Of a DNA stretch of 38,261 bases, positions 15,351 to 33,499 are shown in pieces (position 1 is the stretch's first letter; the number at the start of each line of letters is the position of its first letter). The stretch covers positions 7,288-45,548 of the forward strand of contig CACYHL010000002.1 of the NCBI GenBank assembly GCA_902774205.1. The letters are read 5' to 3'. A model generated the notes under the pieces. That model saw nothing but the letters and a program-made list of their open reading frames with translations. It made no database searches and was not told the origin of the DNA. The position numbers and the translations under genes were made by a program. Source of the DNA: an uncultured Bacteroidota bacterium (GTDB lineage: Bacteria; Bacteroidota; Bacteroidia; Bacteroidales; WCHB1-69).

Positions 15351-15980
15351 TCACACCTCGCCGCTGCCTTGCATGAGAGAACGCAAACGCTGTACCTCTT
15401 CCTTTAACTGCTTCATCTCATCATCGTTCTCCCTTCGTATCGAATGACGTAACTTGAACATGGCGAGATTCAGCTCGAAGAAAGTCTCGGTGCTCTTTTT
15501 CGGAAGCATGTCGGCGATGATGTCTTCCACCAATTGTCCGCCACGATGCAGCAGCTGTTTCTGTATGACAGTATCATCTTCCTGTTGTGGGATTTCCACA
15601 ATTACCCGCGATAGTTCCTTCAGTTTGGCGTATGCCTACACAATGGCGATGGTAGTCTGTACCGCTTTCGGACTTTTCAGAATCGTAGCCAGCATATAGA
15701 GACCCTTCTCGGTAAAGGCTTTGGGAGGATACTTTGTGTGTTGACCTCTACCAGCATTCTTTAAGGTCGAAAATTTCGACCTTAAAGAATTAATCTCTTG
15801 ATTATCAACCTCAAAAATATAGCCCTCAGGGAATTTTTCTGGGTTGTTGCTTACCGCTTCATTGATGCGTTTGGTCTCCACACCGTACAGTTCAGCGACA
15901 TCGCAGTCGAGGATTACCTGCTGGTTGCGCAGGGTGATGATTTTTTCTTCCACGTTGGAAACAATTTCTTGCTGTTTCAT
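15351..15980 (-). pseudogene. ORF6N/KilA-N-like DNA-binding protein interrupted by an in-frame TAG
   Basis: LDCDVAELYGVETKRINEAV...KFP...AFTEKGLYMLATILKS; reads ...TIAIV*AYAKLKELSR... in one frame, with the stop at 15636-15638. Confidence 0.85.
15756..15790. repeat. Perfect 17-bp inverted repeat with 1-nt spacer
   Basis: ATTCTTTAAGGTCGAAA-A-TTTCGACCTTAAAGAAT. Confidence 0.95.
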
Positions 15981-16255: not shown

Positions 16256-17053
16256 TTACTTTTCTCTTGAAGAAATCCCCTTAACGAGGCGTTTTTCTTT
16301 TTCGAAAAGCAAATGCATAAACAATACTTTTTCATTTTTGGCATTGTATGACACCTCCATGGTCGATGAGCGCTCCAGCAATGGCATAATCTCCCCAAAT
16401 GGGAATATGACACGCAAAATACCAGCCCCGTAGTCATCATCGTCAATCATTTCCGCATCGGTTGCATGCAGGGTGGTGATCTCCTCATTCTCATCGAAAA
16501 ACTTAATCGTCAAATCCTCCATAATGGTGTCGGAGTAGTTGGATACCACAAACATACATTTCTGCTCCCCCCTATTCGACAGCAGAATGATATTGGTGAA
16601 GCGGTCATACATTTCCCAACTCCCCCTGAACAGCGTGGTGTAGGCTATGGCTTCAGAATCCGTTTTCGACATAGTCCACAAATAGGGCATGGGCGTGATT
16701 CTGTCGGTCACATTATCATCAAGCCGTTCATCCAATATGACAGGCATCGTGATATACCGGGCGTATCCCCGCAACCACATATTAAATTCCAAGTCCTGAC
16801 AATGGTGTATGGTAAATTCCAGCGTGTCCATAAGGCGATACATCTGCGTGTTCAGTTCCTTGGCTGGAGTTGTTTTGTCTTCCAACATCGACAGACTTGA
16901 TTTACAAAACTCGGAAATCTGATCGATTCGTTGCGCATCATACACATAGTTCGTGCTATCGGGAGGCGTGCCAACCGGTTCTGAGGGAGTATTGCATTCT
17001 GCCAGAGTGGAGGAAAGCAGCATTATTATAGAAAGACAAAATATTTTTTTCAT
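16256..17053 (-). CDS. Hypothetical exported/lipoprotein, paralog of 17074-17916
   Basis: Signal peptide ending LAEC; shares DTLE, YLW, FP..I and TM.(V/I)SY motifs with its neighbour. Confidence 0.8.
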   Translation of the reverse strand: MKKIFCLSIIMLLSSTLAECNTPSEPVGTPPDSTNYVYDAQRIDQISEFCKSSLSMLEDKTTPAKELNTQMYRLMDTLEFTIHHCQDLEFNMWLRGYARYITMPVILDERLDDNVTDRITPMPYLWTMSKTDSEAIAYTTLFRGSWEMYDRFTNIILLSNRGEQKCMFVVSNYSDTIMEDLTIKFFDENEEITTLHATDAEMIDDDDYGAGILRVIFPFGEIMPLLERSSTMEVSYNAKNEKVLFMHLLFEKEKRLVKGISSREK

Positions 17054-17073
17054 AATCAATTTATTTTTTCTCA

Positions 17074-17916
17074 TTACTTATGGCTGTCGCAATACGCCTT
17101 TAAGTCATCGTAATATATTTCCTTGAAATATAGGAGACTATGCATCAGGCTTTCGTCATCATACGAAATGACCATCGTAGTTGCATGGGACATGCAATCA
17201 AGTATTTTCTCTAATGGAAAATAATACACGGCATAGGGGTTGGGAGTAATCTTGACAGCATCATTTATGGATATCGTATGCAGCAGTTCCATGGTTCCGT
17301 TTTCCTCATTAATCATTTTTTCAGCGTCATAGAAATCAATACGGAAACTACTGGCATCCAGAATGATGGGCAAGTCCACACCTAATACAAGTGGACAGTT
17401 TTTACTTTTATTGTAATGGATAGACAGCATTATAGTTCTGAAAATTGTATTTTCGAATCTTTCGTAATTCATAGAAAACACTTCCGTCTCCATGTGGAGA
17501 GAATCCGCATTATGATATTCAGTTGACCAAAGATAGCTTGAGCGCATTACACGTTCAAATCGGTCAAAAACATCTTTGTTTTTGACAGGATGATAAGTGT
17601 GTGCTAATGTATAGCTCAAATCATAAGTAACAAATCGGAAAAAAACTCGTGAATTAATGTCATCATCATGCATTATAGCATGTTCAAGAGTGTCAGCGAG
17701 TCGATCCACTTCTGATAGAAATGCCTCATCAGTAGCCCCTTCTTCTATCTTGTCATACACCATAGAAATCTGGCCATGGATAGAATCTATTCGTTCTGGC
17801 AAGTACACCTCATATCCGTAATTCCTGTCATCCTCTGCAATGTTATTGCTGACAGTCTTTTTGCTGCAACCTGTTATAAGTGCAATCGAAAGGATAAATA
17901 GGACGATATTTTTCAT
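17074..17916 (-). CDS. Hypothetical lipoprotein
   Basis: MKNIVLFILSIALITGC lipobox. Confidence 0.82.
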   Translation of the reverse strand: MKNIVLFILSIALITGCSKKTVSNNIAEDDRNYGYEVYLPERIDSIHGQISMVYDKIEEGATDEAFLSEVDRLADTLEHAIMHDDDINSRVFFRFVTYDLSYTLAHTYHPVKNKDVFDRFERVMRSSYLWSTEYHNADSLHMETEVFSMNYERFENTIFRTIMLSIHYNKSKNCPLVLGVDLPIILDASSFRIDFYDAEKMINEENGTMELLHTISINDAVKITPNPYAVYYFPLEKILDCMSHATTMVISYDDESLMHSLLYFKEIYYDDLKAYCDSHK

Positions 17917-18005: not shown

Positions 18006-19763
18006 CTACTTTACGGCCTCCAATATTCTTTTCTCTTCTTTTTCACAGGCTGTTGTGGCTGCATCATTTTGATAGATGGAATTTGTAAATGTTTTAGGCA
18101 TTGCAGCGTAACCGACATACGCCCCCAACAGCATAAATGCAAGTTCCTTATGTCTGTAATGGCGATGCAGCATAAACCGCTCTATTTGGTCAAATCCTTG
18201 TGCCTTGATAATAAAAGCCATAATTGCCTGCATGATCGGGAGGTCTGACGGTTCTCCAAAATCATTAGACAAGCCCGTCTTATATGCATAGTATTGCCGT
18301 AATATGTTTAGAATTGTGCATCCGTCATCTGTTTGTGCGAATGATGTTTCCTTAAAAGTATTAGCAGAATTTTCGATAAGTGTTAGTATGTCATTGGTTG
18401 AAACTTTTTGTCCAGCTGGGATGCTATTGTTTTGCACGTATTGTAGTATAATGTCGTACAAGCAGATTTCAGCAGGTGTTGCAGCGACGATGTTTCCACT
18501 AATAGTAAGTCCATTTTCATAGGATATCGCAGAGGCATCTATGTTAGAATTACTATTATTACTATTGACTTTGGAAATCAAGCTGTTGAAAATATCACTG
18601 ATTTGCAAAAACAAAGAACGAATGGCGCCGTCATATTTCCCGGCTTCTCCTGCGGCTTCATCAATTCTGTTTTTTATTTCCTTGATTTTTGATTTGGCGG
18701 CCTTATATTCTGAATTGTATTGTTCAAAAGCTTCTACTTTCTCTTTCAACTGTTGTTTCCGTAGAAATTCAGGAGTATCTTTCTTAAAGTATTCTCGCGT
18801 TTTTCCCTTTTTATGACCCTTTTGCACTTCCAAATTCTTAATTGATTGGAGTTCTCTTTTACACGCAGCTATACCGAACTGTTCTTCCATTCTCTCAATG
18901 GATTCTTGCAACGCTTTTCTTTCCCGATCCAATGATATGATGTATTCATTGTATTCCTTTGACTGTTTCCATAAAATATCATTGTTTCGCAAGTCAACAG
19001 TTTTCCTTATCTCATCCAGCAACTGGAGTGCTATGTCAAACAGGTTTGTGACAGGCATTGAACCCATCCATACGGATTTTGCAGCACAGATTTGTTCAAC
19101 ATAATTTTCAAAATTGAAACGTTCTTCCTGCATGAGCAATGAAGTACAGAGACCTGCAATTTCGTTTTTGGTGGCATTAAGCATATTCAAAAGATGTTGC
19201 TGATTGAAATCGGTTGAAGTGACAAGTCCTCTCAAGTATCCGATAATACCACCTTTCACAACATTGACCCGTTCATCGTACTCAATGTACAATGGTGCAT
19301 CAAAAGAAATTTCATCAGAAGACTCTTCTTTAAGAATGAAATCAAATTGTGGATCTACAAAGAATGAGTTCTTGTATTTGTCAATGCACTTTACCTCAAA
19401 CAAAATGTTTGCCTCTGCGACGAATCCTTTCATGAGATTTGTGTCAGCAAAGCACACGCTGATTTCGTCTTTAGAAAAATAGATTGTCTTTGGATATGTA
19501 TATATCCCATTTCCGACCTTGTGTAGCAGCTGGCTCTCAATGATGCTGTCTGTAATCTGGATAGCATATTCCGCCTGTGGCTTTTTTTCAGACAAAACTA
19601 ATTCATTGATTTTTTCATTGCCAGCGTATGATTTTCGGGAAAGGTTACTGCCGAATCTCCGTTGCTGGTAGAACGAGTATGGAGAAAGGCTCTCCGTGGT
19701 CATTGATTCCATAAGATTCCAAGAATCAACAACAATCCAATATCTTTTACTGTTTTGTTTCAT
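18006..19763 (-). CDS. Hypothetical 585-aa cytoplasmic protein with central coiled coil
   Basis: Long ORF 12 nt downstream of the helicase; E/K/Q-rich helical middle; no recognisable catalytic motif. Confidence 0.85.
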   Translation of the reverse strand: MKQNSKRYWIVVDSWNLMESMTTESLSPYSFYQQRRFGSNLSRKSYAGNEKINELVLSEKKPQAEYAIQITDSIIESQLLHKVGNGIYTYPKTIYFSKDEISVCFADTNLMKGFVAEANILFEVKCIDKYKNSFFVDPQFDFILKEESSDEISFDAPLYIEYDERVNVVKGGIIGYLRGLVTSTDFNQQHLLNMLNATKNEIAGLCTSLLMQEERFNFENYVEQICAAKSVWMGSMPVTNLFDIALQLLDEIRKTVDLRNNDILWKQSKEYNEYIISLDRERKALQESIERMEEQFGIAACKRELQSIKNLEVQKGHKKGKTREYFKKDTPEFLRKQQLKEKVEAFEQYNSEYKAAKSKIKEIKNRIDEAAGEAGKYDGAIRSLFLQISDIFNSLISKVNSNNSNSNIDASAISYENGLTISGNIVAATPAEICLYDIILQYVQNNSIPAGQKVSTNDILTLIENSANTFKETSFAQTDDGCTILNILRQYYAYKTGLSNDFGEPSDLPIMQAIMAFIIKAQGFDQIERFMLHRHYRHKELAFMLLGAYVGYAAMPKTFTNSIYQNDAATTACEKEEKRILEAVK

Positions 19764-19775
19764 TTGACTTGGTTT

Positions 19776-21134
19776 TTAGGCGACATTAAATACGATTTTA
19801 CTTTTATCGATAAGAACAACGCTGTCTTTTTCTATTGCACTGAGAAAATCTGTGGGCTGACCTGAAAAAGATATGTGCAAAGAGTTCGAGGCTCGTGTAC
19901 ATGCAACATAGAATGCATTCCGATCCTTCAGGTTCTTTTGAGTGGCAAATGGAATAAAAACATTGCTAAATTCAGATCCCTTTGCTGCATGGTAAGTGAG
20001 TATGCATGGCAACTCATTATTAGAGAAATCCAAAGTGTTAATTGTTTGGTATGGGGCAGTACGTCCGGTTCTATAATGAACTTGTGAGGACATGTCGTTT
20101 TGTTTTAAAAACTGATAGACTGCTTTAACGTATTCTTCTGTGGGTACTAGTATTGCCACGTCATCAAGATCTTCGCGTTTGATTTGGTTCAAAATATCAA
20201 TCATTTCAGCCATCTCATCCGAATACATTGTGATGGTTGGTTTTGGATAGTTCGGATAATCACTGTTTCCGCCGTCTTTCCTGTTACATGAAAGGAGGTC
20301 TGTTGGCGGAACAGGAATGTTTTGTGCCATTCTGGCTATCGACTTTGGCAATCGGTAGTTGTAATTCAAAGAAAGAGTGTCGTATTTTAAAGCATCGCAT
20401 ATTTCATCCATGGATGCACCTTTATCGGCATAAATCTTCTGGTTGTTATCTCCAAAAAGTGTCATGCTTTTACCGACTTTGGGCAGGAACTTATTTATGT
20501 ATGTTGATATGTCAATATCCTGTGCTTCGTCAATAATCAGATAGTCAATTTTGTCTTCCATTTTTCTGAAGACGATGGTGTTGGGAACTAGTCCAACGTG
20601 CTTTGTGTCTGTAACATCAAGCGTGTCATCTTTCATTGGAACCTCATAAAACCAAGAAGTCCGACGGCCAAATGCACGGTAATATACTGTATCAACCCAT
20701 GTGTCAAAGTCGATGCTGACACGCAAAGCATTCTCCGGAGCATTGGAATCTACACGTAAGAACTTTCTAGTTTCTCCATCATTGGTAAGATAGATTACAT
20801 CTCTATTGAAAGCATCATTCGGACTTTTTCTTTTCCAATACACGAAGCCTTCCACATTGTAGCCACGCTCGTTCCACTCCCATTCGTAGACAATTCGTTC
20901 CTTATCAAGTCCGAGAGCATCCATACCATACGCTATCATTCTCTTCAATGCTATGGTGTAAATGCAGATTGCATAGTTACCGAATGCTTTTGCCTGATTG
21001 GCACGATGAATGGCGAGATTTGTTTTCCCGCTGCCGGCAGCGCCTTTGACAATAATGTTTTTGTCAATGGATTCAACGATCACTTTACGTTGCGAATCGT
21101 CAAGATTTGAAATGAACCAGTTTTCCAATTTCAT
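19776..21134 (-). CDS. Compact UvrD-like superfamily 1 helicase
   Basis: GAAGSGKT, IIDEAQD, FGDNNQKIY, NYR, TYHAAKGSEF, YVACTRA. Confidence 0.93.
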   Translation of the reverse strand: MKLENWFISNLDDSQRKVIVESIDKNIIVKGAAGSGKTNLAIHRANQAKAFGNYAICIYTIALKRMIAYGMDALGLDKERIVYEWEWNERGYNVEGFVYWKRKSPNDAFNRDVIYLTNDGETRKFLRVDSNAPENALRVSIDFDTWVDTVYYRAFGRRTSWFYEVPMKDDTLDVTDTKHVGLVPNTIVFRKMEDKIDYLIIDEAQDIDISTYINKFLPKVGKSMTLFGDNNQKIYADKGASMDEICDALKYDTLSLNYNYRLPKSIARMAQNIPVPPTDLLSCNRKDGGNSDYPNYPKPTITMYSDEMAEMIDILNQIKREDLDDVAILVPTEEYVKAVYQFLKQNDMSSQVHYRTGRTAPYQTINTLDFSNNELPCILTYHAAKGSEFSNVFIPFATQKNLKDRNAFYVACTRASNSLHISFSGQPTDFLSAIEKDSVVLIDKSKIVFNVA

Positions 21135-21151
21135 AATACTACTATTTTGGG

Positions 21152-21391
21152 TTATGCTATTTGTTGGGGAACATTCCTCAATGATCTATATGTAGGCAGC
21201 AATTGCTTATGGGTAATATGCCAGCCCATACAGTCGGAACAATAATAGCTGCGAATTGGAGCGTAGCCGTTCCGCTCCATTATTTCCTGTGCATTGAAAC
21301 GGATGCAGGTGTCTGCTTTTTTCTGTGTCTCAAAGAGCATTTTTACACGGCCACAAGCTGGACAATGGATTCTGTTCTTGGTGGGTTTCAT
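21152..21391 (-). CDS. Small Zn-finger-like protein
   Basis: CPAC and YYCSDCMGWH motifs; 17 nt upstream of the helicase. Confidence 0.75.
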   Translation of the reverse strand: MKPTKNRIHCPACGRVKMLFETQKKADTCIRFNAQEIMERNGYAPIRSYYCSDCMGWHITHKQLLPTYRSLRNVPQQIA

Positions 21392-21412
21392 AATCAATAT
21401 TTTTTTTAATGT

Positions 21413-21449
21413 TTACATCACTTAATGTCAATTCAGTGAAAAGGTAACC
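21413..21449 (-). promoter_or_regulatory. Candidate ECF-sigma promoter, copy 1
   Basis: GGTTACCTTTTC-N11-ATTAAG-N3-TGTAA, ending 21 nt before ATG 21391. Confidence 0.65.
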
Positions 21450-21551
21450 ACCTTTCAAAAAAAATTTTTCAAATTTCAACTTTTATTTTTTATATCTTTG
21501 CAAACCAAGATATTACAGAACTTGCACAACGACAATATTCATAAAATTTCT

Positions 21552-22088
21552 ATGGCCGAAGACGTACAATCAAAATCAGAGAAAAAATACAGCCGCGAGG
21601 ACATACACAATATGTCATTTGAACAACTCTGCCAGACTATTTGTGATAAATTGAATGACAATGATTTCGAATATTACATAGAATGGGGAGGAAAAATGGA
21701 GGGACCATTCGGGTTTTCAATCGAACCCAACGACACCATTCGTCCTGGACTTGTTAGAATTTTTCTTTCGCACATTCCTAAAGACGGCATTGACTACCTC
21801 AGAGAAATAGGCCTATTGAACAATGGCCGATGTGCCTTGTGTGGTGCGGACATCGAATCGGGAGAATATGTATGTGCCGAAAAGAACGGGACTTACCACA
21901 TCTGCCGCAGGTGCAACTTGGGGCTTGGCCCAGATGCCAAAATCAGCGAAAGCGTTGCCAAGAGAGGAAACTCTTATATTGGTTCTCCCAATAGAACGGA
22001 ATTGATAGACAGAGCTAACAATAAAGGATGTTTGGTTGCCGCATTGCTTTTTCCGTTATATATCCTCAAAACATTATTTTTCAATTAG
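21552..22088 (+). CDS. Hypothetical protein with CxxC..CxxC finger and C-terminal hydrophobic tail
   Basis: CALC...CRRC; GCLVAALLFPLYIL tail; TATCTTTG promoter upstream. Confidence 0.75.
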   Translation: MAEDVQSKSEKKYSREDIHNMSFEQLCQTICDKLNDNDFEYYIEWGGKMEGPFGFSIEPNDTIRPGLVRIFLSHIPKDGIDYLREIGLLNNGRCALCGADIESGEYVCAEKNGTYHICRRCNLGLGPDAKISESVAKRGNSYIGSPNRTELIDRANNKGCLVAALLFPLYILKTLFFN

Positions 22089-22115
22089 TTTCAGAATATA
22101 CCTAATTTCTTGCAA

Positions 22116-22526
22116 ATGAAAATGACCTTACTTATTTTATCTGCTGTAATCTTTCATCTCCCGCATTCATTTTTTGAAGACACAATCCGCAGGTACAAAA
22201 GAATGCAGCTTTATAATCCGGAAAAAGCGTACCTGTATGAACAGAACAATGGCGGTATGGACAGTTTTCTGTCCATAAATGTTTTCGGATATGTTTTGAG
22301 TCTTGTCGTTGCATTAATTCCTCTTTTCAAGGCATTTCCACTTCGATGGTATGCTGTTATTCTCATTATTATGGCAAACATATTGTATATGGTTTTTGTT
22401 TCATCTTTCTTAGCATACTTTATGTATCCAACGATGGCTATCTTTTGGAAGAGTAAGTTAAAAGAGATTACCATCGTATGCACTATTATTGCAACTGTAT
22501 TGCTCGTTATTGGCTGGTTCCTATAG
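22116..22526 (+). CDS. Hypothetical membrane protein
   Basis: About 4 hydrophobic segments. Confidence 0.75.
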   Translation: MKMTLLILSAVIFHLPHSFFEDTIRRYKRMQLYNPEKAYLYEQNNGGMDSFLSINVFGYVLSLVVALIPLFKAFPLRWYAVILIIMANILYMVFVSSFLAYFMYPTMAIFWKSKLKEITIVCTIIATVLLVIGWFL

Positions 22527-23162
22527 TGACGCTATCCTCTCTGATTTTGTGCTTTTAACAAAACCAATGATAGACGAATCGTGGTAGTTCGGAAAGTGAT
22601 TTTTTGCAGAATTGAAATTCTCCCAGAAAAAGCACACAGCTTCGCCAATTTTATTATATGCAACCTTGAACTCCTGCATGAAGTCTTTTGAGCTGCACAC
22701 ACACGTTTCAAATCTGCAATAAAGGCATTCTTGCGACTCCAGAACCATTGTAACATGGGGATTCTCGTAATTTGTGATCGAAACAAGATGCAGCAAACCG
22801 TTTTTGTCTATCTCTCCTAACTTTTCTCCAGAATACCTGTAGATAAAATATGTCCTTTTGTTACTTTTATTGACTCCCATATCCCACATCACAGTTTGAA
22901 AACAGATGTCACCCTTGCTGATATACAAATCTCCCTCACACATTTTCCAGTCGTAACCTTCCGAATCGAGAGTTCTGCAAACATCCTTTTGCAAGCGCAC
23001 TCTATTTACTCCACTTCTTGCAATAAAAATGGAAACAACCGCCATCAACATAATACAGGCAACTGGCATTAAGGCAAAATTGGCAGGAATAAGAACAAGT
23101 GTAGTGGCAAAAATGCCAGAGGCAATAATATTTAACACTATTTTTCTATTTTCAATACTCAT
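22521..23162 (-). CDS. Membrane-anchored protein with possible YbjN-like domain
   Basis: Two N-terminal TM helices; LDSEGY..., NYENPHVTM... alpha/beta pattern reminiscent of YbjN (unverified). Confidence 0.7.
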   Translation of the reverse strand: MSIENRKIVLNIIASGIFATTLVLIPANFALMPVACIMLMAVVSIFIARSGVNRVRLQKDVCRTLDSEGYDWKMCEGDLYISKGDICFQTVMWDMGVNKSNKRTYFIYRYSGEKLGEIDKNGLLHLVSITNYENPHVTMVLESQECLYCRFETCVCSSKDFMQEFKVAYNKIGEAVCFFWENFNSAKNHFPNYHDSSIIGFVKSTKSERIASL

Positions 23163-23171
23163 ACGGCAATC

Positions 23172-23516
23172 CTAATAAAATGAAACTTCCTTTAACTTAA
23201 TTGAGGTTTTGTTTTTCTGGAGGAAACGCGATCGATTGTTCCCTGTCCTATTGAGACATAGACCAGATTGCACAGTGCGCTTCTCTACTATCCTTTTGAG
23301 CAGTCTTTGGGCCTTCCCATCTCCCAAGTCCTTATGCCGAAAATAAAAATCATCGATAAAAGCCTGATTTGATGGTGAGAAGACATGGAAATCCTCCTTC
23401 ATCCTTGACGACGTCTCACTTCTATTTTGTTTCAAATGTGGCTCCGTGTCCATAAAAAAATCGTCAATCAGCGCCGTTGGATTAATCAAATCCGAATAAT
23501 TGATAGGTGTAATCAT
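23172..23516 (-). CDS. Hypothetical 114-aa protein
   Basis: ATG after an AT-rich leader; 9 nt from the next gene; acidic N-half and basic C-half. Confidence 0.65.
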   Translation of the reverse strand: MITPINYSDLINPTALIDDFFMDTEPHLKQNRSETSSRMKEDFHVFSPSNQAFIDDFYFRHKDLGDGKAQRLLKRIVEKRTVQSGLCLNRTGNNRSRFLQKNKTSIKLKEVSFY

Positions 23517-23531
23517 AACAAAGTTTTTTAG

Positions 23532-23568
23532 TTACACCTCTTAATACCATAAATGAGAAAAGGTAACC
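23532..23568 (-). promoter_or_regulatory. Candidate ECF-sigma promoter, copy 2
   Basis: Same motif and spacing as 21413-21449 (27/37 identical), ending 15 nt before ATG 23516. Confidence 0.65.
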
Positions 23569-23594
23569 GCAAAAAGGCAAAAAAATGCCACCAA

Positions 23595-26174
23595 TCAGTC
23601 CATAAGGACAAAAGCGGCCCAATATTCTGGATTGTGAGGGTACTTTCGTCTCATCGTATTCCGTGCATAGGTAAAAGCATTTTCTATGTCAAAGCCATTT
23701 TTGCACAATTCTCCATAAAACAGCCCCATCATCTCTTCTGCCTTTTGATTTCCCACTTTCCACAAACTCATCATGATTTTGTTCACGCCAGCGAGTTTGA
23801 ATCCCCTCTGCAATCCATAGACACCCTCACTGGAACCGTTATATCCAATACCCGTTTCGCACGCAGAGAGTACGACGAGCTCACAACCATTTAGATTCAT
23901 GTGCGATATTTCGTCTGCATGCAAAATGCCGTCCTCACCGCTGATGGGTGGTTTCAACGTGTCATTTGTCCAATATCTGTTGGCTCCTGCAAAGAAAAGA
24001 ACAGAATTATGCATGGCTTGACTGGGATCTATACTGTTGTCAAAATAACCGTGCGAATCGATATGCAGGAATCTGACACCTCGCCCGTCCAACCACTTGA
24101 ATGACCTCTCCGTAGCTTGGCTGGAAGTCCATTTTTTTACATTGGAGACATTCCCATTTTGCAATATGGAAGAGATCGTGTCAATTTCGCCAGAACCGAG
24201 ATAAGCCAATGGCTGGTGACATCCGATAGCCCTGTACGCATCCTCTCTTGGCATTACATGGTCTCCATACGTATACTCGATGGCACCCCATAGACAAAAT
24301 CCGCCATCGGAACTGGTTTTTCCTCCTTTCTTCAACTCAATAATTTTCTGACAGTTGGAAACCAGTTTAAAATCAAACAAATCGCACAAATATCGGTCAC
24401 TGCCACAGGACAACGCAGGTATGCATACGCTGTTGAAAACACCAGAAGTCGTATAGTACACTTTTTTTACACCTTTAAGGAGACTGTTTACATTGTTGAA
24501 AACCATTGACGTTAGTTCGGTATTATGGTACACAACATCTGGAGTCCCCTGCAAAAACCGCTCAATTTCTTCCTTGCTTGCAATGCGGACAAACGATACA
24601 TTGCTTGAATTGCCTCCTTTCTTCAAGACCAGACAATACAGTTGTCCATGCTGAGTTTCTGCAAACTGGAGAACCGCCTCGTCATCACCAAGTCTCTCCA
24701 ACAAAACATCTCTTGTCGGATGTTTCTCGAAATTACGGTATTGGTATTCCCAGCACCTGTTCGAAACCTCATTGTCAAGCGTTGTTATTTCCTTTTCAAG
24801 TTCACGTATCACCCGCATGTTGCCCAAACCAGACACATAGCGCCGGGCATCCAATTCTCTTTTGCAGTTGACCATACGTTTATATTTTTTTGTAAGTCCC
24901 TCGTCATTCAATGCCCTCACAGCATTTTCAATCGCCATCTCGGATCTTAAATACAGTCCTTGCTGAAACATGTTATTGTCAAAGCAAAGATTTGCGATTT
25001 TCCTGCTGTCTGAGTGTTCATATAAATAGTTTAAGGCGTAATCATACGGTTCTTCCAACAATTTCGCAAAATGTTCACGCTCTTCTTCGGTCATCCCCCT
25101 GAAATTCTTTTCAATATTGCCACGAGCACCTACACAACAGTTTTCAATAGCGGACTCAAGTCCCCGCCAATCCTGTTTTTCCTTTAAAAGGCGAAAGCCG
25201 CACATGCTGTTCAACAAATATTCTAGATCTTCTTTATCATACCTCTCGTTCAAATACTTCATATATTCTCGCAGGAAATATTCACCATACATCTCGTCAT
25301 GAAGAAGATAACAATAGTCCGACAAGCATCCCATGTCGGAATAGTCACCGACAGACATATAAGATACCGATTGAGCCAACTTTGCAGCATAATGAACATA
25401 GGGAGCTACCGATATGGTATCACCTTCCCTCAGACTGATGGAAACAAGTTTATTGAGAAGATGCATTTTTATAGAAGGATTCATCGCTTTATCTTCGAGA
25501 AGTGCATTTTCAGCCATTTCACGTGCAACGTCCAAACCGTATCGTTCAAAGACATCGACACCCATGGATATCGCAGAGGACAAAAATTTTTCTGCTGAAT
25601 ACTTCCCTCCAAAATACTCTTCAAGTTCCTTGGGATGATCAACCAAGTATAAAACAGACCTGCGCATTACCTCAGAATAAAAAACAGCCTGGGATTCATT
25701 GCCAATAGTGTTATAGATTTGCGCCAACCGGCACGAAACATTGAAATTATAGATATTTGCGCGAAAATCATCCAGCGATCGGAGCGTGTCCGCTTTCAAC
25801 AGGATTTGCTCTGCCTTGTCGTATTCTCCGACATGGATATAGCAATCTGTCAACACACACATGTTTTCCACCCTTTTCCTCCTGCTTCCGGATTCCAAGA
25901 AACCAGCATTCGACTCCATTATATAGATTGCCGCATGATAATTCCCGTTGTCAACAAGATTTTCGACGAGTGAGGTCGTGAGTTTGGCATTAAAGACATG
26001 GACATTTTCAGGATCAGTCTTCTCAGCCACAAATATGACACCACCTATAATCAGTATGGGCACAAGAACATACAACGCCACTACAAAAAGCAAACGAAAG
26101 ATATCATATAGCAATCCCCAAAAAATATCTTTGGCACGCATGAACTTTAATAAAAAATATCTATTTTTGCACAT
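23595..26174 (-). CDS. TPR-CHAT domain protease with N-terminal membrane anchor (alternative start 26141)
   Basis: FLHIDSHG (His), LVVLSACETG (Cys), EGVYGLQRGFKLAG, SLWKV, PEYWAAFV; TPR-like helices. Confidence 0.93.
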   Translation of the reverse strand: MCKNRYFLLKFMRAKDIFWGLLYDIFRLLFVVALYVLVPILIIGGVIFVAEKTDPENVHVFNAKLTTSLVENLVDNGNYHAAIYIMESNAGFLESGSRRKRVENMCVLTDCYIHVGEYDKAEQILLKADTLRSLDDFRANIYNFNVSCRLAQIYNTIGNESQAVFYSEVMRRSVLYLVDHPKELEEYFGGKYSAEKFLSSAISMGVDVFERYGLDVAREMAENALLEDKAMNPSIKMHLLNKLVSISLREGDTISVAPYVHYAAKLAQSVSYMSVGDYSDMGCLSDYCYLLHDEMYGEYFLREYMKYLNERYDKEDLEYLLNSMCGFRLLKEKQDWRGLESAIENCCVGARGNIEKNFRGMTEEEREHFAKLLEEPYDYALNYLYEHSDSRKIANLCFDNNMFQQGLYLRSEMAIENAVRALNDEGLTKKYKRMVNCKRELDARRYVSGLGNMRVIRELEKEITTLDNEVSNRCWEYQYRNFEKHPTRDVLLERLGDDEAVLQFAETQHGQLYCLVLKKGGNSSNVSFVRIASKEEIERFLQGTPDVVYHNTELTSMVFNNVNSLLKGVKKVYYTTSGVFNSVCIPALSCGSDRYLCDLFDFKLVSNCQKIIELKKGGKTSSDGGFCLWGAIEYTYGDHVMPREDAYRAIGCHQPLAYLGSGEIDTISSILQNGNVSNVKKWTSSQATERSFKWLDGRGVRFLHIDSHGYFDNSIDPSQAMHNSVLFFAGANRYWTNDTLKPPISGEDGILHADEISHMNLNGCELVVLSACETGIGYNGSSEGVYGLQRGFKLAGVNKIMMSLWKVGNQKAEEMMGLFYGELCKNGFDIENAFTYARNTMRRKYPHNPEYWAAFVLMD

Positions 26175-26402
26175 ATGATTCTTTCTATAGCAAAGTGGCT
26201 TGTTTTTATCGTCTGCAGTCTGTTTGCATACAGAACTGTCTATGATGTCTGCGTAAATAGAAAGAGTCCTATTGAAACTATTCGAGACCTTTTCTTAAGG
26301 TCATTTGTGCAAGGCTCTTTCATCATTTTTATTATCGTATTATTCTTCATAGCAGCCGGTTACTTGATATATATTTCCATATTCGGCACTCAATTATTTT
26401 AA
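26175..26402 (+). CDS. Small 2-TM protein, opposite strand within the protease cluster
   Basis: 75-aa ORF filling the gap exactly; TATTTTTG at 26162-26169. Confidence 0.5.
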   Translation: MILSIAKWLVFIVCSLFAYRTVYDVCVNRKSPIETIRDLFLRSFVQGSFIIFIIVLFFIAAGYLIYISIFGTQLF

Positions 26403-27403
26403 GGGAAACGGACTTTGTTCATAAAATGAACGACCACTTCGTTTCCACCATATTTGTCAGGTTCCAAAACAGACAACACACACTCCTCGTCTCCATTTTG
26501 CGATTTAAGAATCGCAAATGACCAATACCATATTCCAACACTGTCCATAGCTGTATCACCCCAAAGTTTGTATGTTGAAACACACATGGGATTGCCATTA
26601 ATGGAAGAATTCAGAAAACTCACTTCAATCGCATCTGACTCCGAATAACATGAATCCGGAAAATCTTTAGACAATTCTTCTGAAAAGGACAATCGCGAGA
26701 AATGCTTTTCGATCGAACTGTGTACAGTTGCGACGCCACCATTCCCAGTATCAAATATAAACTTTCTTCCGCCACAACTTCCACTTATATCAGTCCAGCT
26801 GTCAAGTGGCGAAAAGACAATAAGTCCATCTGTCATTTCGCTATCATACAAGATCTCCACTGGCTGGCTACGCACACGATAAAAAACCTTTTCAAATGAA
26901 GGGCCATAGCAGATGGCGACAAACAACACGCTGTACACTATTCCAATCCATCCCAAAGCACCCACGTTCCTCGTTGTTTTGGGAATACCATCAACAACGC
27001 ACTTCACGTGACGGATATAAAAAAACAAAAAAATCAAGAAAAGACTCACAAATGCTTGCAGGACATACAGTACGATTATTTGAAAATGCCTGTACGCCAT
27101 TAGTTCCCTACCGACAGCATCATGCATCAGTAGAAATAACACAATTGAAAGCCGCATTGCCAAAATCGAATTGGTTTTGCCTGAAAGCAGGGAGAATATT
27201 GCTGCAAGAGAATAAAACAAGCAACAGGCACACCCGGGGACAAAAAGCACATAATGGTCTGCTTGAAATATTGGAGCATGTGACAACCGGACAAGGTCAA
27301 CTAATGAAAGCGCATAGAGCAGCGTCAATGCGAAATAAGCATACAAAAACGCTGACAGCCACTTACTTGGGACAAACTTTTTATCTACCGCTTCCTTTTC
27401 CAT
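26399..27403 (-). CDS. Multi-pass membrane protein with C-terminal soluble domain
   Basis: About 5 TM helices then a beta-rich domain; start overlaps the end of the caspase gene. Confidence 0.8.
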   Translation of the reverse strand: MEKEAVDKKFVPSKWLSAFLYAYFALTLLYALSLVDLVRLSHAPIFQADHYVLFVPGCACCLFYSLAAIFSLLSGKTNSILAMRLSIVLFLLMHDAVGRELMAYRHFQIIVLYVLQAFVSLFLIFLFFYIRHVKCVVDGIPKTTRNVGALGWIGIVYSVLFVAICYGPSFEKVFYRVRSQPVEILYDSEMTDGLIVFSPLDSWTDISGSCGGRKFIFDTGNGGVATVHSSIEKHFSRLSFSEELSKDFPDSCYSESDAIEVSFLNSSINGNPMCVSTYKLWGDTAMDSVGIWYWSFAILKSQNGDEECVLSVLEPDKYGGNEVVVHFMNKVRFP

Positions 27404-28512
27404 ATAACGAACATCAATATTAACAAAAAAAGCAACCCTCCACACGATGCCCAAAGAAAGATCTTCAGTTTCTGCTCACACGTTGCCTTATCACCGTTTT
27501 TCGATACACTGTTCTCTCTTTCCAACAGATATTTAAGGCCGAAATTGGTTTTTATTATTGGTGTCTGGTATGGGACATTGCATGTCATTCTTTTATACAC
27601 ACAGTCGAAAAACAAAGAATCTTTCACAATATCATCACAAGACAATGCATAACATACGGCATAGGATAACGAACCATATCCAACACTCTTCACTTTTGTT
27701 TCCCTATTGCGCTCGCAACTGCGACATGCACCGACATACACTATTTTAGATTTCCCATAGTCAATCCGAGCAGTGTCCTGAACGTCATATTTTTTTCTGA
27801 GATCAGATTTTTCTTTTTCTGAAATGCTATCTCCACCAAAAATATCATCAACTCCACGTACTACAATTGAGTCATGCCGAGCAGAGACGTCACCTTTTTC
27901 TCCTCCTCCGCTATGGCACGCATCCGCGAAAATTAGAACAAGCCCTTCTTCGCCTAGTATATCTGACAATTTAGCAACATAGCAATTCAGGCTGTCGTCC
28001 AAAAGATGATTCTGTCCGTTGTATGCCTGAGTTTTCTTCATACAGGCATCATACGGAACAAAAGCTTCGTCCAAACCATCCGGCTCCGTGTTGACAGACT
28101 CTCGGCTATAGACTTGTTGTCCATGGCAAGAAAAATGAATAACAACGGTGTCACCACTACTGACAGAGTCAATTAATTGACACATGGCACCCTTTATGCC
28201 TGAGCATGTAGCAGCGTCATCCTCAAGAACATCCACATCAAACCCCCAATAATTCAGCCACTTTTGTAAAAGTTCAATATCATTGTGCGCGCTTATAGTA
28301 CACCATGCTGAGTCCTTGTATTTCGACACACCTACCAAGAGTGCATGCCTTGTACCTGTTGCGCCGGAGCTGGAGGAAGGCATATCGCCAATCTCCATGC
28401 GCGTGCTGTCGCTTTCGATAAGCCCTGTTCCCTTGGAATCATCACCGCAACGGGAAAAGAGAAAGACAAAGGCAAAGGCAGTGAGGTAAATAAAAAAAAC
28501 AAATCGTTTCAT
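27385..28512 (-). CDS. Caspase family (peptidase C14, metacaspase-like) protease, exported and C-terminally anchored
   Basis: ALLVGVSKY, HFSCHG (His), EPDGLDE, FADACHSG (Cys), YQTP; signal peptide and C-terminal TM followed by KRKR. Confidence 0.93.
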   Translation of the reverse strand: MKRFVFFIYLTAFAFVFLFSRCGDDSKGTGLIESDSTRMEIGDMPSSSSGATGTRHALLVGVSKYKDSAWCTISAHNDIELLQKWLNYWGFDVDVLEDDAATCSGIKGAMCQLIDSVSSGDTVVIHFSCHGQQVYSRESVNTEPDGLDEAFVPYDACMKKTQAYNGQNHLLDDSLNCYVAKLSDILGEEGLVLIFADACHSGGGEKGDVSARHDSIVVRGVDDIFGGDSISEKEKSDLRKKYDVQDTARIDYGKSKIVYVGACRSCERNRETKVKSVGYGSLSYAVCYALSCDDIVKDSLFFDCVYKRMTCNVPYQTPIIKTNFGLKYLLERENSVSKNGDKATCEQKLKIFLWASCGGLLFLLILMFVIWKRKR

Positions 28513-28946
28513 ATCCGAGAAAGGCTGACATTCATTCTGTGTTGTTCCACCTGTTCCCTCGCATACGGGATGAAGTAATTCCTAGCAATGTTACGTTGAT
28601 CATCATCAGTGATATCTCGTACATTACCATAGGTCCTTTCAAAAACGGTTTCCATTCCCTCGTATTCATAGACCATCGTGATAGTAAGATGCCCCGTACC
28701 ATACCACAGGCTTATCATAACATGATCATCACACATATTCACCGTCCTTGGTTGAGAATGCGGCAAAATCGTACCCTTTCCATTCATCAATGAAAAATTA
28801 ATCTCCCCCAAAATAATCCTGAATTTATCCTCAATCCTTGTCTTTCTTAGTTCAATCCTGTCCATAAGCAAATCTCGAGAATAAGCGAGAATAATCGCGG
28901 CAAGGACAAAGCAAACAATAAGTATGATTAAAATCCCTTTACTCAT
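28509..28946 (-). CDS. Hypothetical single-TM protein, first gene of the caspase operon
   Basis: N-terminal hydrophobic helix; ATGA overlap with the caspase start. Confidence 0.75.
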   Translation of the reverse strand: MSKGILIILIVCFVLAAIILAYSRDLLMDRIELRKTRIEDKFRIILGEINFSLMNGKGTILPHSQPRTVNMCDDHVMISLWYGTGHLTITMVYEYEGMETVFERTYGNVRDITDDDQRNIARNYFIPYAREQVEQHRMNVSLSRI

Positions 28947-28973: not shown

Positions 28974-29043
28974 CAAAAATACAAAAATGAAGCAATAAAA
29001 TTTCCAGTCATTTCAAAACGTGTCATTTTTATTTATACTTTTG
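28974..29043. promoter_or_regulatory. Divergent Bacteroidota sigmaA -7 boxes
   Basis: TATTTTTG on - strand (28974-28981) and TACTTTTG on + strand (29036-29043). Confidence 0.6.
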
Positions 29044-29068: not shown

Positions 29069-29635
29069 ATGGACTTAACTCTGCGAAAAACAATAAATGC
29101 ATTCATCGAAAGTGCGAGGCCCAAAGTCATGTCCTTCCTCCATAAAAATTATTCATCCCTCAATGATGCAGACATCGAGGACATCGTGCAAGACTCAAGT
29201 TGCCTCTTGTGGCAGAATATTGAAAACGACAAGTACGAAAAGCGGGAAGCCGCCCTTTCAACATATTACCTGTCAATATGCAAGAACCAGGCGAACAACA
29301 GGTGTCGGGCACATAGGACGATAATTGATCCTTTGGAAAATGTACTGGAATTGAGTATGTACAAGGATGAGAATGTGGAGTATCTGCTAGAGATGAGTAG
29401 CAGCAGAAATCAGATTCTTGATGCAATGGAAGGGATTGTAAAATCATTTCCAAAGCCCTGCAATTCAATTCTTTGGAATTTCTACTGGGCAAATTTTTCA
29501 ATGGAAGAAATAGCAAATTTTGAAGGTTACAAAAATGCGGACGTCGCAAAAAGCAAAAAGAGCAAATGTCTTTCAAAATTTAAAAATCATATCAATACAA
29601 TATGTAAACAAAACAGATGGACACTGACAGACTGA
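29069..29635 (+). CDS. ECF-type sigma-70 factor
   Basis: Region 2 DIEDIVQD...LSTYYLSICKN; region 4 FSMEEIANFEGY...AKSKKSKCL. Confidence 0.9.
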   Translation: MDLTLRKTINAFIESARPKVMSFLHKNYSSLNDADIEDIVQDSSCLLWQNIENDKYEKREAALSTYYLSICKNQANNRCRAHRTIIDPLENVLELSMYKDENVEYLLEMSSSRNQILDAMEGIVKSFPKPCNSILWNFYWANFSMEEIANFEGYKNADVAKSKKSKCLSKFKNHINTICKQNRWTLTD

Positions 29636-30279
29636 TTGAAATTGATGATACGATTGATAGATTCCTGAGAGGACAGATGTCGCCGGAAGAAGAAGCGTCA
29701 TTCAAAAGTGATTTGGAAAATGACGCTAACCTCAAGGCCCGTGCAATTTCACAGGCTATGATGGTCAGAAGCATGCAGAATCTAAAAGCGACAACTAGCG
29801 CCACGCGGAATCCGACAGCTGCAACAACTGTTACACCCAAATGGAGAATTGGAATCTGGTCAGCTGCTGCGATAATTGTTCTGATCATCTGCTCAGTTCC
29901 TTGCATAAAATTATACCAGTCAACGCAATTGGCAGACAACTACCTTGCGATGCACGAAGTTCCCTACACACCGAGCCGTGGGGGAGACTCACTAACACAG
30001 GTAGAACTGAACACCGTATTTGAATCGGTTAAGTCACACAAAGACCTAAACAGGAGCATTGAAAAACTAGAAAATATCAGAAAACAGATAAATGAGGACA
30101 AAATCTGCAATTACGGCTATTACGAATATGAAGTCACTTGGTATTTATCTTTAGCTTATCTGGAAAAAGGGAAACGCAGAAAGGCAGCACAGTTGCTTCA
30201 GGATTTCATAGAATCCCATCCTAATGAACCTCGATTGGGTGACATGAAAGAACTGCTCAACAGAGTCAAGGACATTTAA
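29617..30279 (+). CDS. Putative transmembrane anti-sigma factor with TPR-like C-terminus
   Basis: IDRFLRGQMSPEEEASF N-terminus, one TM, SRGG loop, WYLSLAYL TPR; overlaps the sigma gene. Confidence 0.8.
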   Translation: MDTDRLIEIDDTIDRFLRGQMSPEEEASFKSDLENDANLKARAISQAMMVRSMQNLKATTSATRNPTAATTVTPKWRIGIWSAAAIIVLIICSVPCIKLYQSTQLADNYLAMHEVPYTPSRGGDSLTQVELNTVFESVKSHKDLNRSIEKLENIRKQINEDKICNYGYYEYEVTWYLSLAYLEKGKRRKAAQLLQDFIESHPNEPRLGDMKELLNRVKDI

Positions 30280-31920: not shown

Positions 31921-33273
31921 TTACAGTAAAGGCACCATGTATAGAGGCAGGTATGTCAGGCCGTCTTTGATTTCCATATCTTTTGAATGAATCACATACG
32001 GGGTTGACAAATAATTTCTGTATTTTTCAATGCATTTCTTGATGGATGTCAGCGTGTAGTTGGTGCTGCTCTTTACCTCAATCGGGGAAATGTTGTGCCT
32101 TGAGGTGACGATTCCCTTCTGCACCAGAAAGTCGATTTCCATACGATTTTCAGCAGTCTCTTTGTCATAACTGCTGTAGAAAAACAGCTTTTGGCCCCTG
32201 GCCTTCAGCATTTGCGCAACGATGTTTTCCACCAGCATTCCCTGATTGATTTCCAGCTTGTCAAACATCAGTTTTTGGTATATTTCATTGCTTACGACTC
32301 CTCTTGCATTGAAGGCAAGCGAAATCAGCAGCCCCGTATCGCAGAAGTAGCATTTGAGCGTGGTGCGGTCTTCGTTGAGTCGCAGGCCAATGTTGGGAGC
32401 GGTTGTGTTGTAGCAAATGTTTGCGATGCGGGCATCGTCCAGCCAGAAGAATGCACTGTCATACTCACGCATCCGGGCCTCGTCTTTCAGGGCTGAAAGG
32501 GTGAACTTTTTCTCATGCTTCTGCAGTTGTCCGGGAATGGCATCATAAATGGCCGATACTCTTGAAGTTGCAGAACCGGCGTACTTTTGTATGTCGTTTT
32601 TGTAAAGCCGCAAAATCTGGCGCTTGATGGAATCCACTTTGTTGAAATCCTTGCTCTGCACGTATTCTGCAACCGCTTGCGGCATTCCTCCCACAATCAG
32701 GTACTGGCGGAAATAATGCATCGCCTCACGATGAAAATCTCCCATTGGCTTTTGCTTCTCGAATTGGTTCATGATGTAGGGCATCAACAACTCGTTGCCC
32801 ATAGCCCAAAGAAATTCCTCAAAGTCCATCGGATGCATGTCAATCCCTTCCTCTTCGGACGGGATGACAATGCTTTCTACATTTTTACGGATGGAAATGA
32901 GCGATCCGGTTTCCAGATAATCAAAACGATGGTCGGCTACCAGGGTTTTGATGGCTTCACGGGCACGAGGACATCTCTGCACTTCATCGAAAATGATGAG
33001 TGATTTGCGACGTGTAAGCGTTTTCTTATAGTGAAGTTGAATGTTTTGAAGAAGCGTGTCCACGTCTTCCATGTATTCATTGAACCATTCTTTAACACGA
33101 GTGGGGGCTTTGCTAAAGTCAATCAAAATGTAGGATTCGTACTCATTGCGGGCGAATTCCTCTGCAATATAGCTTTTGCCGATACGTCGCGCGCCTTCGA
33201 TGAGAAGAGCTGTTGTACCGTCTTTCTCCTGTTTCCATTGAACAAGTTTATCGTATATTTTTCTTTTCATCAT
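31921..33273 (-). CDS. AAA_14 ATPase with DUF4143 / PD-(D/E)xK-like C-terminus
   Basis: GARRIGKS, IIFDEVQ, ETGS, GGMP, DTGLL, EIDF...PIEVKS. Confidence 0.93.
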   Translation of the reverse strand: MMKRKIYDKLVQWKQEKDGTTALLIEGARRIGKSYIAEEFARNEYESYILIDFSKAPTRVKEWFNEYMEDVDTLLQNIQLHYKKTLTRRKSLIIFDEVQRCPRAREAIKTLVADHRFDYLETGSLISIRKNVESIVIPSEEEGIDMHPMDFEEFLWAMGNELLMPYIMNQFEKQKPMGDFHREAMHYFRQYLIVGGMPQAVAEYVQSKDFNKVDSIKRQILRLYKNDIQKYAGSATSRVSAIYDAIPGQLQKHEKKFTLSALKDEARMREYDSAFFWLDDARIANICYNTTAPNIGLRLNEDRTTLKCYFCDTGLLISLAFNARGVVSNEIYQKLMFDKLEINQGMLVENIVAQMLKARGQKLFFYSSYDKETAENRMEIDFLVQKGIVTSRHNISPIEVKSSTNYTLTSIKKCIEKYRNYLSTPYVIHSKDMEIKDGLTYLPLYMVPLL

Positions 33274-33360
33274 CACTTTTCCGCGATTTTTACAAACGTG
33301 CTTTATACACCTTTCCGCGATTTTTTTAGTATAGTAAAATACACCTTTCCGCGATTTTTT
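33274..33360. repeat. Three direct repeats at 34-nt period in the AAA gene leader
   Basis: CAC(C/T)TTTCCGCGATTTTT with CCGCG cores at 33281, 33315 and 33349. Confidence 0.9.
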
Positions 33361-33499
33361 AATGCGGCAAAGATACAATTAATTTGAAAATGGAGAATGG
33401 AAAACGGAAAATTGAAAAGTTTTTAGCCTTTGATTTCACCTCCCCGATTTTAAACTTTTATTCTTTGCAACCGTCTAAATTTTTTTCAGACTATCGCCT

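Follow-up and report, generated by a model that had tools for sequence, protein, structure and literature searches.

In Myxococcus xanthus, DdvS, a sigma factor of the extracytoplasmic function (ECF) type, is held by DdvA, a single-pass membrane anti-sigma factor with a periplasmic caspase-family CHAT domain; according to the available part of that report, DdvA-like fusions were found only in Myxococcota and in one Comamonas, and release of the sigma factor by a protease was proposed, not demonstrated (PMC11506125). The actinobacterial group ECF54 (PMC7826278) and the neighbourhoods of caspase and ECF genes in Kaur et al. 2021 (PMC8195603) link ECF sigma genes to CHAT or caspase proteins and to TPR proteins. 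Both associations come from genomics only, with the sigma factor proposed as a transcriptional output, and the passages in question give no target genes and no promoter for a Bacteroidota group. The locus considered here lies in a stretch of 38,261 nucleotides (nt) from an uncultured Bacteroidota bacterium of the WCHB1-69 lineage (assembly GCA_902774205.1, contig CACYHL010000002.1, positions 7,288 to 45,548), referred to below as the window. It includes an accessory island with genes for an ECF-type sigma factor of 188 amino acids (aa; 29069-29635, plus strand), an anti-sigma-like membrane protein, a caspase-family protease and a CHAT protease, as well as two copies of a 37-nt bipartite motif, GGTTACCTTTTC-N11-ATTAAG-N3-TGTAA. 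This motif is a family-specific, promoter-shaped element that marks two operons in the window, and comparison across related sequences suggests that its two copies are very probably promoters of the island's own ECF-type sigma factor.

With up to three mismatches allowed, the window contains just two matches to the motif, both on the minus strand and both perfect (21413-21449 and 23532-23568), and 100 dinucleotide shuffles contained none (mean 0.00, maximum 0). Throughout the source assembly (2,426,524 bases in 281 contigs, 92% complete), the full motif, the 12-mer GGTTACCTTTTC alone and the relaxed form GGTTAC-N16-18-ATTAAG are each confined to the same two places. In the first predicted promoter, P1 (21413-21449), the −35 word GGTTAC (21449-21444) is followed by a 17-nt spacer, the −10 word ATTAAG (21426-21421), the triplet TGA and the TGTAA block (21417-21413), which is the predicted start region. 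P1 is intergenic and co-oriented with the ATG at 21391, which opens a 79-aa gene on the minus strand 21 nt beyond the end of the site and 29 nt from the end of the −10. The second predicted promoter, P2 (23532-23568), repeats this arrangement with GGTTAC at 23568-23563, a 17-nt spacer, ATTAAG at 23545-23540, AGG, and TGTAA at 23536-23532, and the ATG of a 114-aa gene follows at 23516, 15 nt beyond its end. The two sites are identical at 27 of 37 positions, and an alignment of both upstream regions restricts this likeness to the blocks: the spacers have 3 of 11 and 1 of 3 positions in common, and the flanks are unrelated. The initial annotation of this DNA, made from the letters alone, had described an identically spaced motif ahead of two unrelated operons, with conserved blocks around a diverged spacer. 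That description stands on every count: two perfect copies, none in the shuffles, and none elsewhere in the assembly.

Two loose matches elsewhere in the assembly were rejected as additional sites, one on contig C7 that falls inside a coding frame and one on contig C92 that lies ahead of a terminator-like hairpin, with no start nearby. Contigs of near-identical strains from four DNA runs span both P1 and P2, and no differences inside either motif are listed; these strains are too close to be informative. A single-base deletion was present in these runs at 21400, in the run of A residues between P1 and the ATG. Short contigs in two DNA runs match just the 44 nt at 21389-21432, with 8 differences and with unrelated DNA on either side. 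This stretch spans the start codon of the 79-aa gene, the TGTAA block and ATTAAG and extends into the spacer, and the contigs may represent related promoter or leader copies in other organisms.

The consensus TAnnTTTG is the −7 element of promoters used by the primary (housekeeping) sigma factor of Bacteroidota. No such box occurs within 150 nt upstream of the starts at 21391 and 23516, in agreement with the initial annotation, which had remarked on its absence from both sites. Boxes of this form lie 33, 35 and 59 nt upstream of the sigma gene (TACTTTTG, 29036-29043, plus strand), of the protease operon encoding p155, the caspase, a membrane protein and CHAT (TATTTTTG, 28974-28981, minus strand), and of a 178-aa gene at 21552, respectively. 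The boxes at the sigma gene and the protease operon are taken here to be primary-sigma −7 elements. Since the sigma and protease operons have TAnnTTTG boxes and two other operons have the motif, the motif-driven operons look like outputs.

Among 151 other genomes of the same taxonomic family, 8 encode homologues of the window sigma factor, with 28-39% identity, and by tblastn all eight loci adjoin CHAT and/or caspase genes; several also hold counterparts of the anti-sigma factor and of the 145-aa, membrane and 213-aa proteins and the 272-aa lipoprotein described below. The motif might have been absent from such loci, an outcome that the initial annotation had named as telling against its proposal. 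The opposite is seen: seven of the eight carry the motif or a clade-specific variant, intergenic and pointing at downstream genes. The canonical form, TTACYTTTT-N9/10-(GGT, GAC, AAC or GTC)-AT(T/A)AA followed by RGR-YAAA, occurs once in locus L030, four times in L031, three times in L033, once in L035 and twice in L037, and the variant TGTTAACCTTT(G/T)-N10/11-GTCATAAAG occurs three times in L032 and once in L034. No motif site was found in L036, a contig of 10.8 kb. The −10 and downstream part of P2 is near-identical to the site of the sister locus L030, and in L031 one site stands ahead of a whole operon with genes for a 142-aa protein, CHAT, caspase, the sigma factor and the anti-sigma factor. 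Under a weight matrix derived from 12 of these sites, the two window sites reach 39.9 and 39.8 bits and the next best place in the 2.43-Mb source assembly 16.1 bits; as the matrix was made from sites that it scores, only the genome background is informative.

Pattern searches across the family proved less telling. A strict pattern with up to two mismatches, run on 152 family genomes, returned only 2-mismatch matches, at about the rate of a reversed-pattern control, and is uninformative because the GG and the spacing vary. The loose pattern TTACCTTTT-N12/13-ATTAA has a background-level total across the family and is informative only through the location of its matches: in the sigma-bearing genomes, 9 of 11 matches lie on the sigma factor's own contig, and a tenth adjoins a homologue of the partner gene from the protease-free sigma subfamily discussed below. 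Among 30 short loci around loose-pattern matches in the family, only L041 has a family sigma factor within 1.5 kb.

At the level of the order, a profile of the eight sigma factors (E ≤1e-20) detects the family in 82 of 401 sampled genomes, with 95 matches. Forty further loci were taken from this set, giving 49 loci with the window and 48 without; about half of the 40 have CHAT or caspase within about 10 kb. In the 48 non-window loci, the most enriched upstream 8-mers, led by the −35 word of the motif, are TACCTTTT (17 of 48), GGTTACTT (15 of 48) and GGTTACCT (13 of 48), and none of the three occurs in the 50,471 nt of upstream DNA that served as background. The test is limited by this background, which is the gene-upstream DNA of a single genome (the source assembly's contigs other than C2). 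The geometry of the sites was followed in all 49 loci (790,463 bases, 15.4% of them intergenic by the map of open reading frames, or ORFs), where 48 of 86 GGTTACYT words are intergenic. An ATTAAT-like hexamer stands behind 34 of these 48, at a spacing of 17 nt in 19 cases, 18 nt in 13, 16 nt in one and 15 nt in one, and behind only 3 of the 38 words inside coding sequence. For nearly all of the two-block sites (33 of 34), a gene of like orientation starts no more than 300 nt away. Some of the distances between −10 and ATG are just 1-15 nt, so the first-ATG starts were probably called too far upstream there. The resulting consensus for the sigma family is GGTTAC-N17/18-ATTAAT.

The motif is also found ahead of the sigma genes themselves. 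In the 44 loci with a called sigma ORF, scanned over 200 nt upstream in the orientation of the sigma gene, it precedes the sigma ATG in 13 of 19 protease-free loci, always within 110 nt and mostly at 30-45 nt, and in 2 of 25 protease-linked loci (L119 and L125); L129 has the variant GGGTGACC immediately upstream of its sigma gene. With the operon-level site of L031, this makes four protease-linked loci in which a sigma gene or operon is preceded by the motif. In the protease-free relatives this is classic ECF autoregulation. The −10 variants track subclades of the sigma family, with CGACATAA in L121, L033 and L035, ATACTAA in L131 and L136, and GTCATAAAG in L032 and L034, a pattern expected from co-evolution and from shared descent alike. 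In the protease-free branch (L131, L136, L146, L147, L149-L153 and L155-L157), a partner gene of about 350 aa, similar to the trypsin-like proteases of other loci, follows the sigma gene, and there are often two back-to-back copies of the motif, one for the sigma gene and one for a divergent gene.

The association was also approached from the opposite direction, by scanning metagenome contigs with GGTTACCTTTT-N12/13-ATTAA and no protein information. This reverse search yielded at least 122 stretches, of which 80 loci were taken with flanks of up to 6 kb, representing 78 distinct contigs (the pairs L179/L180 and L211/L212 share contigs). A family sigma factor (at least 60 bits on the profile) is encoded in 34 of the 80, or on 33 distinct contigs, and five more loci have weaker sigma matches, several of them clipped by a contig end. 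As a rough estimate from the 95 profile matches and the size of the 401 genomes, a few Mb apiece, a random 12-kb stretch would hold a family sigma factor in far fewer than 1% of cases. In 28 of the 34 loci the motif lies within 300 nt of the 5' end of the sigma gene, with a divergent orientation in 24 and a co-directional upstream position in four. By way of negative control, 21 loci of more distant ECF sigma factors (21-36% identity, about 0.35 Mb) contained no matrix match of 18 bits or more; four of these 21 have a CHAT neighbour. The proposal in the initial annotation that the two blocks are −35 and −10 elements for the sigma factor encoded at 29069 thus draws support, at the level of sequence, from the seven of eight family loci, the enriched 8-mers, the autoregulation and the reverse search.

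The window sigma factor matches Pfam Sigma70_r2, and the profile of its family matches SigW (5wuq, 2.2e-9, positions 4-188) and also sigma-E (1or7), which places it by domains and profile among the ECF (group IV) members of the sigma-70 family. In a maximum-likelihood tree, 42 family sigma factors (that of the window and 41 relatives) form one clade with support 100/99, and the six other ECF-like sigma ORFs of the source assembly fall outside this clade. The window sigma factor is sister to that of L030 (98/88). The gene that follows it (29617-30279, plus strand) overlaps its end, is conserved beside it and encodes a 220-aa, single-pass, anti-sigma-like protein with a C-terminal TPR-like domain. 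A model of the complex between the sigma factor and residues 1-62 of this protein scored 0.79, compared with 0.00 for the best of three controls, with at least 43% of contacts agreeing between runs and a partner pLDDT of at least 71. Of 157 solved complexes, 116 attain the mark set for such models, as do 2 of 215 mismatched pairs; these counts hold only roughly here, since own alignments were used. As sigma/anti-sigma complexes have already been solved, passing the mark may reflect likeness to known structures and not binding by the window copy. Binding of the sigma factor by the N-terminus of the 220-aa protein is nonetheless supported by the model. On the other side of the membrane segment, about 23 residues outside it, all nine aligned anti-sigma factors have a basic residue, an invariant Gly and then Asp, Glu or Asn; in the window this motif, which includes Arg121 and Gly122, is at residues about 121-123 (29977-29985, plus strand). 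Orthocaspases are reported, in the part of the literature available, to cleave after basic residues (PMC6426788). As the neighbouring protease is metacaspase-like, the basic-Gly-acidic motif is a candidate cleavage site, although its identification as the site of metacaspase cleavage is speculation.

Several observations weigh against assigning P1 and P2 to this sigma factor. On TIGR02937 it scores 42.7 bits, 0.2 below the NCBIfam cut-off of 42.9. Its own gene has no motif within 200 nt upstream and so lacks the autoregulation typical of ECF sigma factors, and the link of P1 and P2 to it consequently rests on homology and on proximity (5.5 and 7.6 kb). The −10 is AT-rich, unlike the GTCT or CGT-type −10 of the well-studied ECF groups in the part of the classification available (PMC7826278). 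The sigma factors and their promoters are inherited together, so that co-occurrence and clade-specific variants partly reflect shared descent, and more sites may be missing from an assembly that is incomplete. For operon 2 there is also a second possible source of transcripts. P2 begins 26 nt past the stop codon of the CHAT gene, and the most that the intervening sequence (23569-23594, minus strand) offers is a GGCA/TGCC hairpin of 4 bp with a T-run; with so short a distance and no convincing terminator, read-through could also express the operon. L033 likewise has the motif directly 3' of its CHAT gene.

Finally, GGTTACC is near-identical to its own reverse complement, GGTAACC, as the site of a dimeric regulator might be. 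The motif would then be an operator bound at this near-palindromic core by a DNA-binding regulator, for instance the 79-aa zinc-ribbon-like protein, a small Cys-rich protein encoded by the first gene behind P1. However, none of the eight related loci has a homologue of this protein, yet seven keep the motif. The sigma factor is the only predicted DNA-binding protein common to all eight, and the site is asymmetric, with a T-tract on one side only, a second block at a fixed 17-18 nt, and the orientation of the downstream gene in 33 of 34 cases. With no shared DNA-binding protein other than the sigma factor and a site that is asymmetric and oriented, an operator is unlikely. If the sites are promoters, they might instead be read by a different alternative sigma factor of the cell, of which the assembly offers six further ECF-like candidates, and the island's sigma gene does itself lack the motif. 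This is very unlikely, considering that the motif tracks the island's sigma family in both search directions, that the loose-pattern matches in sigma-bearing family genomes fall on the sigma factor's contig in 9 of 11 cases, and that the loci of more distant ECF sigma factors have no match.

Two further explanations would deny the motif a role in transcription initiation. The accessory island holds just two copies, separated by 2.1 kb, as might be left by a duplication or a small mobile repeat with no regulatory role. However, their likeness ends at the edges of the blocks, with diverged spacers between them, both copies are at promoter distance from a start codon, and the same blocks stand ahead of unrelated genes in distant genomes and in metagenomes, all of which makes a remnant of this kind highly improbable. 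Their position just upstream of start codons would also suit a sequence that acts in RNA, as a leader or small structured element. Against this, no Rfam match was found anywhere in the window, the folding energies of both sites are no different from those of shuffles (z = 0.07 and 0.29), their predicted folds do not agree, and in the related loci there is no complementarity between the blocks; an RNA element is unsupported and very improbable.

What would a sigma factor acting from P1 and P2 switch on? The genes of the window were annotated with Pfam, NCBIfam, PADLOC, Atlas structure models and the ORF map. Operon 1 runs from 21391 to 16256 on the minus strand, and its first gene encodes the 79-aa protein (21152-21391), which has two Cys pairs, is zinc-ribbon-like and has no match in Pfam, NCBIfam or PADLOC. 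It is followed by a 452-aa UvrD-like superfamily-1 helicase (19776-21134; Pfam UvrD_C, UvrD-helicase and AAA_19), whose best PADLOC matches are the DRT RTasHel and GajB-type UvrD helicases, and by a 585-aa protein (18006-19763), which has no Pfam match and a weak match to LmuB (24.8 bits) and belongs in Atlas to unnamed clusters with members recorded from Bacteroidota. Two lipoprotein-like genes with Cys-containing signal sequences end the operon (16256-17916), one of 280 aa (17074-17916) and one of 272 aa (16256-17074), the latter with homologues in L031 and L032. Operon 2 (23516 to 22521, minus strand) consists of the 114-aa gene (23172-23516), whose product has no family match in Pfam, NCBIfam or PADLOC, and a gene for a 213-aa membrane-anchored protein with a YbjN-like fold (22521-23162). 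The YbjN-like label given to this protein in the initial annotation finds support in structure, through an Atlas cluster that is 68% PF10722 (TM 0.61/0.75), and none in Pfam, where the protein has no match. Beyond the window, the motif also stands ahead of counterparts of the 213-aa gene in L030, L031 and L037, so that this gene appears to be the recurrent output.

Elsewhere in the sigma family, the genes behind the motif are varied. PIF1-like helicases are encoded directly behind the variant motif in L032 (3691-5757) and L034 (15508-16629), and the motif precedes genes for a Schlafen/AlbA_2-HATPase-HTH protein in L033, DnaJ-domain proteins in L031 and L121, a DprA-like protein in L037, a DnaB_C/KaiC-like ATPase in L121 and an ABC-F ATPase in L129. 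Behind it in L124, L125, L142 and L145 are additional caspases, together with trypsin-like proteases and TPR proteins. Counting the UvrD-like helicase of the window, the PIF1-like proteins of L032 and L034 and the DnaB_C-like protein of L121, three helicase or ATPase types occur as outputs of what would be one switch.

The sensor/protease operon (23595-28946, minus strand), which would provide the input, encodes the 145-aa protein (28509-28946), a metacaspase-like C14 protease (27385-28512; Pfam Peptidase_C14), a membrane protein (26399-27403) and an 859-aa CHAT protease with an N-terminal membrane anchor (23595-26174; Pfam CHAT). This protease module is conserved together with the sigma factor. 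The nearest solved relatives of the C14 protease are metacaspases; the CHAT protein matched no solved chain by sequence at an E value of 0.01 or better, and a related-locus search seeded with it found no relative. In both proteases the His and Cys motifs are retained and the N-terminus carries a signal or anchor segment; the caspase has an additional C-terminal hydrophobic anchor. From these segments, both are predicted to face the periplasm.

Ordinary genes, including those for a Na/Pi transporter, MarR and ferritin, occupy the first 15 kb, and the accessory island begins near 15.3 kb of the window. One of the genes in this first part (1086-4487, plus strand) encodes a gingipain-like C25 peptidase, ordinary for Bacteroidota, that carries a propeptide, an Ig-like domain and a C-terminal sorting domain of the type IX secretion system (T9SS). 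An ORF6N-domain gene (phage/Rha-like regulator; 15636-15980, minus strand) is found on the left margin of the accessory region and may mark the boundary of a mobile element. Beyond the sigma and anti-sigma genes, an AAA_14/DUF4143 ATPase (31921-33378, minus strand) matches the PADLOC candidate defence family PDC-S01 (1e-113), and the adjoining gene (33500-36010, plus strand) encodes an 836-aa protein with no family match. The presence of this candidate in the window is compatible with a stress or defence switch and is not proof of one.

If P1 and P2 are promoters of the island's own sigma factor, a circuit of the following kind may be envisaged. The sigma factor, the anti-sigma factor and the caspase and CHAT proteases would presumably be made constitutively, as the boxes at the sigma and protease operons are of the housekeeping type. 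An extracytoplasmic signal would allow the metacaspase-like protease, the CHAT protease or both to clip the anti-sigma factor, and intramembrane proteolysis would next free the sigma factor. The freed sigma factor would read GGTTAC as the −35 and ATTAAG as the −10, 17 nt apart, with transcription probably starting in or just after TGTAA, a few bases past ATTAAG, giving leaders of about 15-22 nt. Operon 1, with its zinc-ribbon-like protein, helicase, 585-aa protein and two lipoproteins, and operon 2, with its 114-aa and YbjN-like proteins, would be switched on in this way.

A broader picture can be drawn tentatively, and it is possible rather than probable. The window would represent a large Bacteroidota ECF family with a private code, GGTTAC-N17/18-ATTAAT, one branch of which has been de-autoregulated and put under separate periplasmic metacaspase-like and CHAT proteases, in a split version of the DdvA/DdvS logic in which the anti-sigma factor is possibly cut at the basic-Gly-acidic motif. 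With a swappable cargo of nucleic-acid enzymes (UvrD-, PIF1- and DnaB-like helicases, Schlafen/AlbA, DprA), it would serve as an inducible immune or stress switch of gut Bacteroidales. Within this picture, the gating by proteases and the purpose of the regulon are hypotheses. The motif nevertheless offers a concrete read-out for an uncharacterised sigma family that is present in about a fifth of the sampled genomes of the order (82 of 401), and the activity of P1 and P2 would report what activates the sigma factor and whether caspase-family proteases release it. It also delimits, from sequence alone, a regulon that is variable across loci and rich in helicases and nucleic-acid enzymes, which gives a hint of an inducible role in the defence of gut bacteria.

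How does this arrangement compare with the systems already described? In Craspase, the coupling turns a protease event into transcription, and the CHAT protease is cytoplasmic; those of the window are predicted to be extracytoplasmic. The likeness between the two lies in the genetic coupling of a CHAT protease to an ECF-like sigma factor, as described for Craspase (Cas7-11 and the TPR-CHAT protein Csx29) and CASP-sigma/RpoE in the relevant part of PMC10028731. Pfam and family scans found no CRISPR-Cas genes (Cas7-11, Csx29, Csx30 or Csx31) in the window, and its sigma factor scores 23.8 bits on CAS_III-E_sigma (NF041236), for which the cut-off is 100, and so falls outside the Type III-E family. 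With RpoE, RseA, DegS and RseP, the window has in common a two-domain sigma factor, a co-transcribed membrane anti-sigma factor and regulated proteolysis (PMC7826278, in part). However, its candidates for the site-1 protease are caspase-family and not DegS-like, and its sigma factor is not autoregulated. The promoters of ECF02 resemble those of the window-sigma family in that a T-run follows the −35, as GAACTTT in ECF02 and as GGTTACCTTTT here, and differ in the −35 and −10 words, the −10 being GTCT in ECF02 and ATTAAG in the window (same source). The caspase-linked groups ECF54 and those of Kaur et al. differ from the window in phylum, partner genes and predicted motif (GTATCAG and CTCC for ECF54). 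Compared by their published words, neither ECF03, with TTAAACC and a TC-containing −10, nor ECF54 equals GGTTAC/ATTAAT (PMC7826278). The part of the ECF classification supplement covered contains neither a 'TTACC' motif nor a CHAT- or caspase-linked Bacteroidetes group (PMC7826278), and in the literature consulted, with the classification covered in part, no description was found of a Bacteroidota sigma family with the GGTTAC motif or of the split arrangement.

Along with Craspase/CASP-sigma, the closest likeness is to DdvS/DdvA, for which the available part of the report describes a periplasm-facing CHAT domain, a sigma factor whose own promoters drive accessory or defence genes nearby, and a release proposed to proceed through protease cleavage and then intramembrane proteolysis (PMC11506125). 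In DdvA, a TPR-CHAT region is fused to the anti-sigma domain, whereas in the window the CHAT protease (859 aa), the metacaspase-like protease and the anti-sigma factor (220 aa) are separate proteins, with the anti-sigma and CHAT genes on opposite strands. The anti-sigma domain of DdvA binds zinc through a CHCC site, which is missing from the window protein, whose residues 1-62 include no Cys or His. The cargo differs as well, being CBASS or CRISPR for DdvS and a helicase operon and a YbjN-like pair in the window. With no matching description found, the system of the window thus appears, from its sequence, to be a split variant of the logic that joins ECF sigma factors to CHAT and caspase proteases.

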